Origin: Myxococcales bacterium
GTDB lineage: Bacteria > Myxococcota_A > Polyangia > Palsa-1104
Reading direction: 5' to 3'
Assembly (NCBI GenBank): GCA_028287105.1
Contig: JAQBQH010000274.1
Coordinates: 8,215-72,214, forward strand
DNA: 64,000 bases
Below are positions 13,009-31,025 of this stretch, piece after piece. The notes under the pieces were generated by a model. That model was given only the letters and a program-made list of their open reading frames with translations, was not told the origin of the DNA and did no database searches. The translations under genes and the position numbers were made by a program. Position 1 is the stretch's first letter. Each line of letters starts with the position of its first letter.

Positions 13009-13314
13009 CTAGGGCAGCGCGCGTTCCAGCTCGTCGACGAGCTGGGAGAGCCGCGCCAATTGCGCCGCGCACTCTCCGGGAGCCGTGGTGCCCGTCTCGA
13101 CGGCACGTGCGGTGCGCATGACCTCGCGCGCCCGTTGCGACAGCTCGGCGAACCCAATCATCGCCGCCTCGCCGCTGATGCTGTGCAGGTGGAACGCGAG
13201 CGCCCGCGCGGCGGCCGCGGCGTCGTCACCGTCGAGCGCCGGCACCGTCGCCAGACGCTCGCGCGCCGAATGGATGAAGCGCCGTCCGTAGCGCGCCATC
13301 AGGTCCGAGCTCAT
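13009..13314 (-). CDS. Stand-alone Hpt (histidine phosphotransfer) protein
   Basis: LAFHLHSISGEAAMIGF matches the H-x-x-K/S-G-x-A Hpt motif. 101 aa. ATGA overlap with the upstream gene. Confidence 0.75.
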   Translation of the reverse strand: MSSDLMARYGRRFIHSARERLATVPALDGDDAAAAARALAFHLHSISGEAAMIGFAELSQRAREVMRTARAVETGTTAPGECAAQLARLSQLVDELERALP

Positions 13315-14423
13315 GCGGGCTCTTCGCCCAGCAGCGCCTTGACGCGGCGGACCATCTCGTTGAGGCCCGCCCCTTTGTAGATGTAGCCGTCGACCTCGGC
13401 CGCTTGCGCGCGCTGGGCCAGCTCCGCCTCGTCGAGGATCGAGAACAGCAACACCGGAACCGTCACCTTGCGCAGGCCGCGCAGCACGTTGGCGACATCG
13501 TCGCCGTACGCCTCGGGCATCTGGACGTCGAGGAGGATGAGGTCCGGCTGCTCACGCTCGAGGAGCCGGCCCATCTCGCCGAGGTCGCTGGTGGCGAATG
13601 ATTGAAAGCCCGCCGCCTCGAGGGCGTCGTGGGCAAGCTCGAGCATCATCGGGCTGTCGTCGACGACGAGGATCTTCTTGCGCGCCCGCCCGACGAGGGC
13701 CGGCTCCTTGACCGCCAGCCCCTGGAGCGTCGTGCACAGGTCGATCACTTCCATGGGCTTGTTCAGATACAGGTCGACACCCGCCGCCAAAAAGGCGTCG
13801 CGCGCCTCGGCGCCCGCGACGCTGATCCCGACGATAGGCAGGCCCGCGTGTCGCGGCTCGGCGCGGATGGCGGCGACGAGCTCAGCGCCGCTCTTGCCCG
13901 GCAACAGGTGGTCGATGATGGCGAAGTCGTACTGCCCGCGCGCCAGCAGCTCCGCGGCCTGCTCGGCGTCGACGGCGACGTCGATGCTCGAGGCCGGCCC
14001 GATGCGCGTGCGCCGGCGGAAGGTGTACGAGAAGATCTCGCGAACGATCAAGCTGTCGTCGACGACGAGCCCGCGCAAGCTGACGCCGCGCGCCGCCGCC
14101 GCCGTGTCGCCGCGCGCCAGCAGCGCCTCGAGCGCCTGCCGGTCCGCGGGATTGTCGAACGACAGCTCGGCGCGAACGCCGGCGAATGCGCCGGGAGCGG
14201 CCGCCGCCTCGTGCGCGAGGACACAGCCGGACGCATGCACCGGCCGCAAAAGCTTGGGAAACGACAACACGATCGAGATGCGCGTCCCGACCGGCGGCGG
14301 TCGATCGAGCTGGATGCGCGCGATCGACGTCGACACCTCCGTCGTGTGCGAGATGGTCGTGGTCGTCCCATCACGGACTTCGGCGCGCAAGAGCAGTCGG
14401 TGCGTTCGACCTTCCATCGTCAT
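13311..14423 (-). CDS. PilZ-like domain + two receiver domains
   Basis: Start MTMEGR (ATG 14421-14423) within track ORF 13311..14999. N-terminal RLLLR (RxxxR) beta-barrel-like domain. REC1 is LVVDDSLIVRE...FAIIDHLLPG...NKP. REC2 is ILVVDDSPMM...LILLDVQMPEAYG...YKG. Confidence 0.75.
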   Translation of the reverse strand: MTMEGRTHRLLLRAEVRDGTTTTISHTTEVSTSIARIQLDRPPPVGTRISIVLSFPKLLRPVHASGCVLAHEAAAAPGAFAGVRAELSFDNPADRQALEALLARGDTAAAARGVSLRGLVVDDSLIVREIFSYTFRRRTRIGPASSIDVAVDAEQAAELLARGQYDFAIIDHLLPGKSGAELVAAIRAEPRHAGLPIVGISVAGAEARDAFLAAGVDLYLNKPMEVIDLCTTLQGLAVKEPALVGRARKKILVVDDSPMMLELAHDALEAAGFQSFATSDLGEMGRLLEREQPDLILLDVQMPEAYGDDVANVLRGLRKVTVPVLLFSILDEAELAQRAQAAEVDGYIYKGAGLNEMVRRVKALLGEEPA

Positions 14424-14452
14424 CTGCCCCCTCCGTACCGACCGTTCCGGCC

Positions 14453-15031
14453 TTACCGGATGACGCGCGCCAGTCGCAACAGCTCGCTGGAGAATGCCGC
14501 GCCCTCTTCTTTGCTGGCCGGCAGGTTGACGGTGATCGTCGTCTTGCCGTCGAACATGAACACGCCGAGCGAAAAGCCGGCGGTGAGCTGCTCCTCGCGC
14601 GAGGCGACGGTGAGGATGTGCACGCGGCGGCTCTCCTCGCGAATCGCGTTTTGCTCCGACTCGAGCCCCGGGCAGACGTAGAGCGCGTCGATGCCCTGGC
14701 CGGTGACGGCGCCATGCAGGGCGTCCTTGCCGCTGTAGGCGAGCTTGACCACCCGCAGCGGCAGGTTCTGCACCTTGACGCCTTCGATGGCCTTCAACGC
14801 GCGGACCATCCCGTCGGCAGCGCCTTCGCTGGCGGATTGGCCGGACTTGAAGACGACGGCGACGACGATCGCGTCGCCGGCGCGCGCGCGCAGGTTGTCG
14901 TCGTAGGCGAGCGCGCGGGCGAGGATGACCGCCTGCTTGTCGGGGGAGACCTGGTCGGCACGAGCCGATCGCGGCATCAGGCACGCGACCAGGAGGCACG
15001 GGGCAACGATATGGCGAAGCTTGACCATCAA
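14453..15031 (-). CDS. YfiR/DUF4154-like periplasmic protein
   Basis: Signal peptide plus FLARALAYDDNL-type start, VKLAYSG, ALYVCPG and GFSLGVFMFDGKTTITVNLPASKEEGAAFSSELLRLARVI, the pattern I associate with DUF4154. Confidence 0.65.
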   Translation of the reverse strand: MMVKLRHIVAPCLLVACLMPRSARADQVSPDKQAVILARALAYDDNLRARAGDAIVVAVVFKSGQSASEGAADGMVRALKAIEGVKVQNLPLRVVKLAYSGKDALHGAVTGQGIDALYVCPGLESEQNAIREESRRVHILTVASREEQLTAGFSLGVFMFDGKTTITVNLPASKEEGAAFSSELLRLARVIR

Positions 15032-15035
15032 GATA

Positions 15036-29241: not shown

Positions 29242-29543
29242 CCAGAGCGGCGTTGCGGCGGCGCCAGCTCGTCGATGCGGCGCCACAGCTTGTACAGCGT
29301 CATGACGATGGTGGGGTCGTCGATGCCGCCTACGATGCGCAGCGCGCGCTCGCCATCGCGGGCCATGGTCGCCACGTCGTGCAGACCCATGATCGACGCT
29401 TCACCGGCGATGGTGTGCAGGTCGGCGGCGATCGACGGCGCCGCGTTGGCACCGTCGGCGATCAGCTTCGAGGCTCGCTCCAGCCGCTCGCGCGCGCTGG
29501 CGACGAAGCGGGGCAGGAACTTGGCGCGGATGTCGTCGATCAA
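29238..29543 (-). CDS. Stand-alone Hpt protein (paralog of 13009..13314)
   Basis: IAADLHTIAGEASIMGL Hpt motif. FLPRFVASARERL aligns with GRRFIHSARERL of the other copy. Confidence 0.75.
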   Translation of the reverse strand: MIDDIRAKFLPRFVASARERLERASKLIADGANAAPSIAADLHTIAGEASIMGLHDVATMARDGERALRIVGGIDDPTIVMTLYKLWRRIDELAPPQRRSG

Positions 29544-29932
29544 CTCGGCTCTCCACCGGCGCCGATGATCTGCTGCACGCGCAGCACGATCGCCTCGGCC
29601 CCCATCTGCTTCGAGATGAATCCGTCGATGTCGGCGTCGGCGGCGCGCCGCTTGAGCTCGGCGTCGTCGAGCGTCGATAGAAGGTAGATGGGCGCGTCGA
29701 CCTCACGGGCGGCGCGCAACACCATCGCCACGTCGTCGCCGAACGCCTCCGGCATCTGCACGTCCATGAGCACCAGGTCTGGACGGTTGCGACTGCGATG
29801 CTCCTCGAGCTGCGTCAGGTTGTTGGCGATGAGCACCTCGTAGCCGGCCGCGTCGAGCGCCGCGCGCATCATGTCGAGCACCAGCGCGCTGTCGTCGACG
29901 ATGAGAATCTGTTTACGCCTGACCGCCATCAT
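29540..29932 (-). CDS. Single-domain response regulator (paralog of REC2 of 13311..14423)
   Basis: ILIVDDSALVLD ... LVLMDVQMPEAFGDDVA ... ISKQ, compared with LILLDVQMPEAYGDDVA in the fused copy. Confidence 0.85.
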   Translation of the reverse strand: MMAVRRKQILIVDDSALVLDMMRAALDAAGYEVLIANNLTQLEEHRSRNRPDLVLMDVQMPEAFGDDVAMVLRAAREVDAPIYLLSTLDDAELKRRAADADIDGFISKQMGAEAIVLRVQQIIGAGGEPS

Positions 29933-30651
29933 CGCTGCGCTCCGTGCGCGTTGAGCCGCTCGAGGGTGGCGAACAGATCTTTGAGCACCAGGGGCTTATC
30001 GAGAAACAGATCGGCGCCCGCCGCCAGGGTGGCGTCGCGGGCGGTCGGCCCACCGACGCTGACGGCGACGATCGGAACGTTGGCCAGCCGCGGCTCGGCC
30101 TTCATCCGCTGCACCAGCTGCGCGCCATCCAGCTCCGGTAGGAAATAGTCGACGATGGCGAGGTCGTAGGAGGCGCCGGCGAGCATCTTCCAGGCGCTGG
30201 CGCCATCCGCCGCGTGGTCGACGGTGACGTAGCCCGGCTTGCCGCGGAAGTACTTGCGGATGCCGTACGAGAACATGTCGCGAATGAGGTTGTTGTCCTC
30301 GACGAGGAGGACGTGGAAGCCCGCGAGCGCGTCGGCGGCCGGCTCCTCGGCGACCGTCGTGAGCACGGTGTGCAGCCGCTCGGCGTCGGTCGGTGAAGCC
30401 GGTTCGATCTCGAGCTCCAATCCCGACGGCTCGCCCGGCGCCGCCGACGTGGTGACCGAGGTGACACGGCCGATCACCTCGAACGGCTCGACCAGCCGCG
30501 GAAACGACAAGCGAACGAGCACTTCGGCGTTCACCGCGAGCTGGACGTCGGTCTCGATGAAGGCTTCATCGTTGGCCAGCTCGAGCGTGTGTGCGACGAA
30601 CGGGGCGTGCCCGTCGCACTGGACCTCGGCGCGCAAGAGGATCCGCTTCAT
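29929..30651 (-). CDS. PilZ-like domain + one receiver domain
   Basis: ATG 30649-30651 (MKRILLRAEV, RxxxR). REC is VLLVEDNNLIRDMFSY...LAIVDYFLPELDG...LDKP. Aligns along its length with the first two domains of 13311..14423. Confidence 0.75.
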   Translation of the reverse strand: MKRILLRAEVQCDGHAPFVAHTLELANDEAFIETDVQLAVNAEVLVRLSFPRLVEPFEVIGRVTSVTTSAAPGEPSGLELEIEPASPTDAERLHTVLTTVAEEPAADALAGFHVLLVEDNNLIRDMFSYGIRKYFRGKPGYVTVDHAADGASAWKMLAGASYDLAIVDYFLPELDGAQLVQRMKAEPRLANVPIVAVSVGGPTARDATLAAGADLFLDKPLVLKDLFATLERLNAHGAQR

Positions 30652-31025
30652 CGTGGGCTCCCAGGAAGAAGAAAGCGTCCAACCGACTGCGCCAGCGCGT
30701 GCGCGTTCGAGGTCTTGGCGATGAAGCCGGCGGCGCCGCAGTCCTTTGCCAGGGCGGACAGCTCGCCCGCGGGCCGGTCGGAGAAGAGGACGATCGGACA
30801 GCGATGGAGATTGTGCTGGCGCGTCACCGTGACGATGTGGTTGCCGGAGAGCGCGGGCATCGAGACATCGAGCAGTACCAGGTCCGGCTTCTCGCGGCCG
30901 AGCGCGCGGCTCAACCCGAGCCCTGATTCGAGCGTGACGACTTCGTAACCAAATCCCTCGAGCATCATGCGCGTGAGGTCGCGACACAGGTCACTGTCGT
31001 CGACCACGAGGATCTTCTGCGGCAT
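30648..31025 (-). CDS. Single-domain response regulator (paralog of 18606..18974)
   Basis: ATG 31023-31025. KILVVDDSDLCRD...LVLLDVSMPALSG...CPIVLFSDRPAGEL...FIAK. Confidence 0.85.
   Translation of the reverse strand: MPQKILVVDDSDLCRDLTRMMLEGFGYEVVTLESGLGLSRALGREKPDLVLLDVSMPALSGNHIVTVTRQHNLHRCPIVLFSDRPAGELSALAKDCGAAGFIAKTSNAHALAQSVGRFLLPGSPR

Follow-up and report, generated by a model that had tools for sequence, protein, structure and literature searches.

A Putative Chemosensory Pathway with a YfiR-type Envelope Input in a Myxococcales Bacterium

The window analyzed here, 64 kb (64,000 nucleotides, ~68–70% GC) of contig JAQBQH010000274.1 from a Myxococcales bacterium, holds an 18-kb cluster in which the genes of a chemosensory pathway lie divergent from those of a TonB-dependent receptor (TBDR) and a periplasmic YfiR-like protein. 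The sequence evidence supports a functional tie of the TBDR and the YfiR-like protein to the methyl-accepting chemotaxis protein (MCP) of the pathway, because it combines homology to the pair of YfiR and CHASE8-bearing YfiN, matches to a trio of NCBIfam families, gene neighborhoods in distant lineages, and a palindrome shared by promoter regions of the cluster. On balance, and with some reserve, we explain the cluster as an envelope-input, probably non-flagellar chemosensory pathway in a Polyangia myxobacterium from soil, the receptor of which is a YfiN-type CHASE8-HAMP sensor fused to an MCP domain. The original prediction, made from the letters alone, had a YfiR-like protein and an outer-membrane receptor wired to an MCP instead of a cyclase, with relay proteins further downstream; the wiring of the input is supported by these lines of evidence, whereas the relay is linked to it only in close relatives.

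Genes were called as open reading frames (ORFs) under the guidance of third-position GC content (GC3) and were scanned against Pfam and NCBIfam, which returned all of the predicted genes and domains at the coordinates given below. The close relatives referred to throughout are the loci L001 and L013–L019, contigs from soil metagenomes together with one Polyangia metagenome-assembled genome (L001).

RESULTS

The Chemoreceptor Carries a YfiN-type Sensor Domain

The MCP (18991-20544, plus strand) is resolved by Pfam into a first transmembrane segment, a YfiN-type CHASE8 periplasmic domain, a second transmembrane segment, two HAMP domains and MCPsignal, such that the output domain attached to the sensor in the window is neither GGDEF nor a histidine kinase. 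CHASE8 is the fold that the original prediction had considered for residues ~35-175, and it is scored by 59 of the best 87 sensor homologues, although the window protein itself reaches 25.0 bits against a Pfam threshold of 27. Residues 9-230 match NCBIfam family NF053592 ("sensor histidine kinase, YfiR-like protein-associated") from end to end (positions 1-221 of 223) with 80.1 bits against a cut-off of 194, and residues 15-238 also match the N-terminus of the NCBIfam model of DgcN/YfiN (26 bits).

The periplasmic domain of YfiN is now assigned to CHASE8 (PMC8085984), and its AAVVF patch was proposed by Malone et al. (2012; PMC3375315) as the site at which YfiR binds. Alignment of the MCP sensor profile by hhalign sets LEF66DD of the MCP on VVF70AD of DgcN, over 43 columns and with a probability of 21%, and in a set of 24 MCP-type homologues the conservation of F66 and of D68 is 90% or higher. 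As VVF70AD of DgcN corresponds to the AAVVF patch, LEF66DD is a candidate YfiR-binding patch of the MCP. The protein therefore has the CHASE8 domain, the hydrophobic Phe patch and the HAMP of a YfiN-type sensor, with a homology that is weak for the single sequence.

Querying a word index with the sensor domain turned up just 21 matches, mostly to HAMP alone, and an exhaustive HMMER search was used instead (query, MCP residues 1-190; cut-off, E<=1e-3), which returned 946 cluster representatives. A Pfam census of the best 87 of the 118 closest of these counted 47 with MCPsignal, 29 with HATPase_c and 1 with GGDEF, and an offline test of all 118 for MCP or non-MCP identity found 56 MCPs. Because approximately half of the closest sensor homologues are MCPs, the CHASE8-MCPs of the type seen in the window form, by domain composition, a sizeable family.

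A TonB-dependent Receptor and a YfiR-like Protein Share an Operon

The genes on the minus strand run from the TBDR (15036-17039; 667 amino acids; Pfam Plug 81 bits, barrel 52 bits) through the YfiR-like protein (14453-15031; 192 amino acids with a signal peptide) to two relay proteins described below, the response regulator XRR and the phosphotransfer protein Hpt1. They are separated by gaps of 4 and 29 nt and finally by an overlap of 4 nt, in keeping with the predicted operon with junctions of 30 nt or less. Plug and barrel of the TBDR are normal and no STN signaling extension was detected on it. The YfiR-like protein scores 44.9 bits for DUF4154 against a gathering threshold of 24.9, which bears out the identity on which the original prediction had staked itself.

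Homology of this protein to YfiR is apparent in profile comparisons too. A profile built from ten DUF4154 proteins of MCP loci has YfiR structures as its sole matches in the PDB (E 1.5e-3), where the single window protein finds none by phmmer, and the family profile aligns by hhalign with E. coli YfiR over its full length (166 columns, probability 86.5%, E 4.6e-6). The best NCBIfam match of the YfiR-like protein is NF053591 (TOL_0243 YfiR-like; 31.7 bits against a cut-off of 125) and that of the TBDR is NF053590 (TOL_0244 family; 123.5 bits against an equivalog cut-off of 645); the TBDRs that adjoin DUF4154 genes in the more distant loci L002, L008 and L029 likewise have the TOL_0244 model as their best match. 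TBDR, YfiR-like protein and sensor all stay under the curated cut-offs, and with scores so far below them the window proteins are best described as distant relatives of the NCBIfam trio, not as members of it.

Among the scanned ORFs of the window there is no OmpA/Pal-like domain of the YfiB type, the co-transcribed outer-membrane protein being the TBDR, and there is no GGDEF or EAL domain. A GGDEF partner hidden inside the window was considered and dropped, as none was found in these ORFs. The TBDR gene and the first gene of the plus-strand operon, which encodes the lipoprotein Lipo1, diverge from a spacer of 230 nt; this region, predicted to be shared and AT-rich, has a measured GC content of 54% compared with ~68% in its surroundings.

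The Input Genes and the che Genes Co-occur in Relatives

A sensor alignment of 5 sequences served to find loci, a 24-sequence version being too diverse, and Lipo1 as a further query yielded the P0215 contig and L029. Of the close relatives, L001, L016 and L019 match the window gene for gene to the ends of their contigs, with identities of 54–92% (92% for the MCP of L001), and L016 spans the entire 18-kb cluster through the phosphodiesterase, the activator and Hpt2; the shorter L013–L015, L017 and L018 match over their length. A few kilobases downstream of Hpt1, L001 has a second, unrelated MCP/CheA pair (14996-19004), where the window has an ABC transporter (11006-12991).

The more distant loci present the same components in other arrangements. 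L002 reads DUF4154-TBDR-x-CheW-x-DUF4154-MCP-CheA(REC)-CheB, with a 4-nt overlap of the second DUF4154 gene and the MCP gene; L008 reads MCP-PEGA-DUF4154-TBDR; and L011 has TBDR-x-DUF4154-MCP in the company of TonB/ExbBD. DUF4154 adjoins the MCP in L009, L010, L027 and L028, and the TBDR is divergent from the MCP in L025. In L012, where the sensor homologue is of the histidine kinase type, an outer-membrane-protein-like gene, DUF4154 and the kinase follow one another, so that the yfiR-like gene directly adjoins or overlaps the sensor gene in L002, L009, L010, L011, L027, L028 and L012. The gene upstream of DUF4154 in L012 (region 8051-11569) encodes 454 amino acids with a signal peptide, a C-terminal ...SAGF and the look of an outer-membrane β-barrel; this non-TBDR outer-membrane protein may fill the slot of the TBDR.

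The two loci found with Lipo1 retain the divergent arrangement of the window. L029 reads AraC ... DUF4154-TBDR <> Lipo1-Lipo2-REC-MCP, and the rearranged P0215 contig reads CheA?-CheB-CheR-REC-CheW-CheW / DUF4154-TBDR <> Lipo1-Lipo2-Phosphodiest. Lipo1 is divergent from TBDR-DUF4154 in every one of the compared loci that has it, Lipo2 is syntenic with it in all relatives, and an enzyme of the Phosphodiest family is retained both in L016, as an orthologue, and in the P0215 contig, beside Lipo2. From these comparisons the conserved core is, in terms of gene order, TBDR-DUF4154 divergent from Lipo1-Lipo2, plus the che genes. The original prediction would not have survived if TBDR/YfiR-like and che genes never co-occurred in relatives; they do so in L016, L002, the P0215 contig and L029.

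The sample of neighborhoods is small, and in raw counts ~8 of the ~12 informative lineages have DUF4154 beside such MCPs and 5 have a TBDR there, which makes adjacency of DUF4154 frequent and not obligatory. A 183-amino acid gene upstream of the MCP in L007 gave no match to the DUF4154 hidden Markov model. In L023 (8985-9899) and L024 (6465-7339) two cheW genes lie directly upstream of the MCP gene (CheW-CheW-MCP-CheA), the product of which is 57% identical to the window MCP. Neither DUF4154 nor a TBDR was found within ~7–10 kb upstream in these two, the sole flank that the contigs cover, and the input module can therefore evidently be lost or relocated.

The Divergent Operon Encodes a Full Chemosensory Core

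The plus-strand operon was confirmed with the order and the GTGA/ATGA junctions predicted for it: two lipoproteins, a REC protein, the MCP, CheA, CheR-TPR and CheB. Lipo1 (17270-17944; 224 amino acids, lipobox VGGC) and Lipo2 (17947-18603; 218 amino acids, lipobox SAGC) match no Pfam or NCBIfam family, and comparison of the two by hhalign reveals no relationship outside the signal peptide. All 50 homologues of Lipo1 are from soil metagenomes and annotated as hypothetical. Its AlphaFold2 model is all-β (predicted local distance difference test score, pLDDT, 87.4) and has no credible match in the PDB, with a best template-modeling (TM) score of <0.25; identities as fHbp, TbpB or a lipocalin, suggested by low-probability fold matches of this kind, were dropped.

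RECa (18606-18974, plus strand) is a CheY-like single-domain REC protein (Response_reg 56.6 bits) with intact acceptor residues. CheA (20541-22673, plus strand) has the predicted hybrid architecture Hpt-HATPase-CheW-REC, with REC at residues 592-692, and only its start had to be corrected. The most likely start is the CTG at 20541, which overlaps the stop codon of the MCP gene (CTGA), because the N-terminus of the Hpt domain is encoded upstream of the first ATG (20658), as also of any GTG or TTG, and the frame is open to 20541. The start is CTG in L001 too, and TTG at the exactly homologous position in the more distant L002; it appears to be either a rare non-canonical start or a case of translational coupling. 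CheR (22670-24019, plus strand) follows with a GTGA overlap and carries TPR at residues 332-384, and CheB (24016-25059, plus strand), REC plus methylesterase, follows with an ATGA overlap.

On the opposite strand an exported lipoprotein of the type I phosphodiesterase/nucleotide pyrophosphatase family (AlkP superfamily; 25951-27522, minus strand; lipobox WLGC, Pfam Phosphodiest 90.9 bits) is followed by two co-oriented cheW genes (25447-25878 and 25085-25450, minus strand), which are syntenic in L016. The full core of MCP, CheW, CheA, CheR and CheB is thereby present, including the hybrid CheA-REC and CheR-TPR. The Hpt-kinase linker of CheA (20840-21080, residues ~100-180) is a repeat rich in His, Gly, Asp and Ala, HGGHAADGAHGGDGADAAHRVDGADAAH..., and in the phosphodiesterase the lipobox is followed by HDHGHGHGHG and the tail is acidic (DDDEGNDDD); all of these segments are candidates for metal binding.

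Relay Proteins Are Encoded in Two Paralogous Sets

Hpt1 (13009-13314, minus strand) is a stand-alone Hpt protein of 101 amino acids (Pfam Hpt 30.3 bits) with its His in HSISG and a 4-nt overlap with the gene upstream, which encodes XRR (13311-14423, minus strand; 370 amino acids), a PilZ-fold/REC/REC response regulator with two Response_reg domains, both of which retain DD/D/S/K. The N-terminal domain of XRR and that of its paralogue XR2 had been called PilZ-like, and by sequence they remain below the Pfam PilZ (PF07238) threshold of 22.5 bits, with 19.3 bits for XRR (E 1.5e-3) and 12.4 bits for XR2. However, the AlphaFold2 model of the N-terminus of XRR (pLDDT 82.7) returned PilZ domains for all of its top 38 PDB matches in Foldseek (TM 0.6–0.8, probability 1.00), and on the strength of the model these domains are PilZ by fold, if not by Pfam threshold. 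The first cyclic di-GMP (c-di-GMP) motif, RxxxR, is invariant (R9, R13) and the second is degenerate, being ExSxxI in XRR and ExAxxE in XR2.

The second operon of REC, PilZ-like-REC, REC and Hpt genes that had been predicted is confirmed by Pfam (29238-31025, minus strand). It comprises a REC protein (30648-31025), XR2 (PilZ-fold-REC; 29929-30651), another REC protein (29540-29932) and Hpt2 (29238-29543), joined by 4-nt overlaps throughout. Its products are paralogues of proteins at the che locus, with identities of 52% (RECd and RECa), 40% (XR2 and residues 1-236 of XRR), 48% (RECc and residues 248-366 of XRR) and 36% (Hpt2 and Hpt1). Going by these identities, the operon repeats RECa, XRR and Hpt1 in paralogous form, and at the che locus these three are split over both strands; since the second operon unites paralogues of proteins from both divergent operons, it argues that the two belong together. 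The phospho-acceptor residues are intact in all eight true REC domains and in both Hpt proteins. A relay of Hpt and PilZ-REC-REC at the position next to the TBDR is absent from L029, the P0215 contig and L002, and in this comparison of loci the Hpt and PilZ-REC-REC genes are lineage-specific additions.

The Cluster Encodes an Enhancer-binding Protein and Shares a Promoter Palindrome

Between the phosphodiesterase operon and the second relay operon lies the gene of the predicted GAFTGA activator (27901-29241, plus strand; Sigma54_activat 232 bits), which is 83% identical in L016 and which, as an AAA+ protein with GAFTGA encoded near a σ54 promoter, has the hallmarks of a σ54 enhancer-binding protein. 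Its N-terminus gives a weak match to the FleQ domain (15.6 bits, E 0.022) and lacks equivalents of DD, T87 and K109, which makes it a degenerate FleQ-like pseudo-receiver. An activator devoid of receiver residues has no direct role as a phospho-acceptor, and no route from CheA to σ54 transcription, which the original prediction had thought possible, is evident.

The σ54 promoter predicted before the phosphodiesterase-cheW-cheW genes is present as a −24/−12 element of the type GG-N10-GC (27561-27575, minus strand; cGGCAtggtgcTTGCt, cGGCAtggtgcTTGC), ~40 nt upstream of the phosphodiesterase ATG, and it forms a conserved island (block CGCGGCATGnnGCTTGCTC) in the otherwise poorly conserved orthologous spacer of L016. 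The consensus is nevertheless not enriched across the window (40 matches compared with 61 expected), and no element with up to two mismatches occurs in the TBDR/Lipo1 intergenic region or upstream of the second relay operon. The lipoprotein/che operon is preceded by a σ70-like promoter (17207-17236, plus strand; TTGACA, 18-nt spacer, TATTCT), both hexamers of which are kept in the window, L016, L013 and L017, while L029 keeps only the −35 TTGACA.

The 64 kb hold three copies of a 17-bp palindrome, TGCGRCA-N3-YGYCGCA, where 0.15–0.26 are expected, and each of them is in a promoter region of the cluster. Site 1 (TGCGGCATTTTGTCGCA; 17175-17191) is upstream of the Lipo1 operon, 16 nt before its −35 TTGACA; site 2 (TGCGACATTTCGCCGCA; 27810-27826) falls in the region that separates the phosphodiesterase operon from the activator gene; and site 3 (TGCGGCAATTTGTCGCA; 31157-31173) is upstream of the second relay operon at a distance of 132 nt. 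Site 1 is kept at the orthologous position in L001, L013, L016, L017 and L019, and site 2 in L016 (14810-14826); the palindrome is found nowhere else in the loci of relatives that keep these sites. We take the palindrome as a candidate operator of the FleQ-like σ54 activator.

Other Genes of the Window

Some 40 further ORFs of the window were scanned, among them genes for glycoside hydrolases, extracytoplasmic function (ECF) sigma factors, a Ser/Thr kinase, ABC transporters and lectin-like proteins; no flagellar, pilus or gliding gene is among them, as had been predicted. A gene on the minus strand (31204-32802), which directly adjoins palindrome site 3 and the second relay operon on their upstream side, encodes a secreted Cys-rich protein. 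It combines five Cys-rich TNFR/NGFR repeats (Pfam TNFR_c6 72 bits) with EGF domains, a set unusual for a bacterium. Thaumatin-like proteins are uncommon in bacteria, and one is encoded at 40624-41823 (minus strand), where a domain of the thaumatin family (259 bits) is joined to ricin-type lectin repeats. Glycoside hydrolases (GH113, two GH26, GH16, GH1) and ricin lectins abound in the region around it, which points to a neighborhood devoted to the degradation of polysaccharides or fungal cell walls.

DISCUSSION

The pathway that we favor, with its envelope input and YfiN-type receptor, would operate as follows. By homology to YfiR and YfiN, the YfiR-like protein would bind the LEF patch in the CHASE8 domain of the MCP and set the signaling state of the receptor. 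The TOL_0244-like TBDR would take the place of YfiB, its ligand occupancy or transport state freeing or holding the YfiR-like protein. The two lipoproteins and the exported phosphodiesterase, to judge from their linkage, would be accessory parts of the envelope that may generate or present the ligand. By domain content the MCP controls the hybrid CheA-REC together with two CheW proteins, with CheR-TPR and CheB providing adaptation, and phosphoryl groups would pass to RECa and, in the lineage of the window, also by way of Hpt1 to the PixA-like PilZ-REC-REC protein. As they have the palindromic operator in common, the operons would form one regulon, the regulator of which would probably be the FleQ-like activator; the same protein would also drive the phosphodiesterase-cheW-cheW genes from the conserved −24/−12 promoter.

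Several observations weigh against this explanation. The CHASE8 match of the window MCP is sub-threshold (25.0 against 27 bits), DgcN is aligned over a short stretch of 43 columns (probability 21%), and all three matches to the NCBIfam trio are far under their equivalog cut-offs. The YfiR-like gene of the window is not adjacent to the MCP gene, from which it is 3.9 kb away in a divergent operon, and no DUF4154 or TBDR gene lies within 8–10 kb of MCP-type homologues in L007, L023/L024, L026 and L030. Hpt1 and XRR genes stand beside the TBDR operon only in the close relatives L001, L016 and L019. The activator, lacking a receiver, offers no evident route from CheA to transcription; the protein that binds the palindrome is a guess, and one of the sites is at a σ70-type promoter.

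The same linkage data would serve equally for sensing coupled to transport, in which the TBDR would import a ligand, possibly a product of the phosphodiesterase, and the YfiR-like protein would dock as a co-receptor on the MCP, much as MBP docks on Tar or as imported glycans reach the hybrid sensors of Bacteroides. The normal plug and barrel of a TBDR free of any signaling extension would suit this arrangement, as would the TonB/ExbBD cluster beside the module of L011 and the conservation of the phosphodiesterase and lipoproteins in the cluster. The characterized YfiR is, on the other hand, an inhibitor that is released by sequestration (PMC3375315), and the data fit the favored explanation just as well; we regard coupling to transport as rather improbable. 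In an extension of the favored explanation, a chemosensory array would have its sensor in the outer membrane, in the form of a TBDR that lacks a signaling extension, with a soluble YfiR-like shuttle relaying its ligand state to the CHASE8-MCP, and this we put forward as no better than a tentative proposal.

Hybrid CheA-REC and CheR-TPR are typical of pathways with alternative cellular functions. The output could still be motility, with gliding or type IV pilus polarity and reversals under the control of the CheY-like REC and the PixA-like PilZ-REC proteins, because the PilZ-REC architecture is that of M. xanthus PixA, a regulator of motility polarity that is an orphan with no known kinase (PMC8316039); the Foldseek result on the AlphaFold2 model, which confirms the PilZ fold, and the presence of single-domain CheY-like REC proteins point the same way. 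Yet the scanned ORFs of the 64 kb include no motility genes and the PilZ-REC genes are outside the conserved core, which leaves motility control an outcome that we doubt. A mere juxtaposition, in which the TBDR and YfiR-like protein form a module for nutrient uptake or of the c-di-GMP type with a YfiN-type partner, a cyclase or kinase, encoded elsewhere in the genome and the che operon is unrelated, would account for the CHASE8-MCP homologues that have no DUF4154 or TBDR neighbors and for the opposite strands of the two gene sets in the window. It is very hard to reconcile with a YfiN-type sensor domain on the MCP itself, adjacency or overlap of DUF4154 and MCP genes in several unrelated lineages, linkage that outlasts the rearrangement of the P0215 contig, the division over both operons of RECa, XRR and Hpt1, whose paralogues share a single operon, and the promoter palindrome in common, and we give it little credence.

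Like YfiBNR (TpbB/DgcN; P. aeruginosa, E. coli) and HmsCDE of Yersinia, the cluster has a periplasmic protein of the DUF4154/YfiR type, an inner-membrane sensor with a YfiN-type CHASE8 domain, hydrophobic Phe patch and HAMP, and an outer-membrane partner encoded alongside. In contrast to YfiBNR, the output in the window is an MCP that feeds CheA, CheW, CheR and CheB and not GGDEF, the outer-membrane partner is a TBDR of the 22-strand type and not the Pal-like lipoprotein YfiB, the Cys pairs of YfiR are not kept in the YfiR-like protein, and its gene is in an operon divergent from the sensor gene. Malone et al. (2012) recognized in YfiR-YfiN[PAS] a modular core that is widespread, has outputs of the GGDEF-EAL, HPT or histidine kinase type and often loses YfiB (PMC3375315). 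The NCBIfam cassette NF053590–NF053592 shares with the cluster the input trio of TBDR, YfiR-like protein and sensor N-terminal domain, whereas the output in the window is an MCP with a full Che pathway in place of a histidine kinase, and the scores are far below the cut-offs; an experimental paper on that cassette was not found in the literature searched. The claim that no system of this composition had been described therefore holds in part: the YfiR-YfiN modular core and the combination of TBDR, YfiR-like protein and histidine kinase are known already, whereas no description of an MCP/Che output or a TBDR partner for a YfiR-YfiN-type core was found in the literature searched.

The pathway resembles M. 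xanthus Che3/CrdA and Pseudomonas Wsp in its set of MCP, CheW, CheA-REC, CheR-TPR and CheB with no motility genes nearby, and Che3 also in having an activator of the NtrC family encoded close by. However, the window activator lacks the phospho-acceptor residues of a receiver, which CrdA has, there is no GGDEF output as in Wsp, and the cluster has additional Hpt, PilZ-REC-REC and REC relay proteins and the TBDR/YfiR-like input, so that the label Che3-like is no more than an analogy. PixA, likewise myxobacterial, shares the N-terminal PilZ fold with RxxxR followed by a phosphorylatable receiver. XRR differs in its two receivers and, with its paralogue, in the degenerate second c-di-GMP motif, and the window genes have a stand-alone Hpt gene for company and a kinase pathway beside them, pixA being an orphan. 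With FecA-FecR-FecI the cluster has in common an outer-membrane TBDR coupled genetically to a signaling protein of the cytoplasmic membrane, yet its TBDR has no N-terminal STN signaling domain, the operon includes no anti-sigma/ECF sigma partner, and a soluble YfiR-like protein is the intermediary that we propose.

Little is understood of how chemoreceptors learn what lies beyond the outer membrane, and for most chemosensory pathways that do not serve motility the inputs are obscure. The cluster offers a concrete and testable chain of input, from TBDR to YfiR-like protein to CHASE8-MCP, in an arrangement that recurs in many uncultured soil bacteria. YfiR-type inputs with such envelope partners have otherwise been known from c-di-GMP enzymes and histidine kinases alone, and the YfiR-YfiN principle would here be extended from c-di-GMP and two-component outputs to Che pathways. 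The work also suggests a candidate kinase pathway for PixA-type PilZ-REC regulators and flags two lipoprotein families, one of which has no fold match in the PDB, and the shared operator could define a regulon. Should the TBDR indeed serve a chemosensory array as its sensor in the outer membrane, TBDR signaling would gain a third mode beside ECF/anti-sigma transducers and import-coupled sensing; the exported phosphodiesterase and the two lipoproteins of unknown fold would be dedicated accessory parts, and the MCPs that make up approximately half of the 118 closest sensor-domain representatives would constitute a large uncharacterized class of chemoreceptors.

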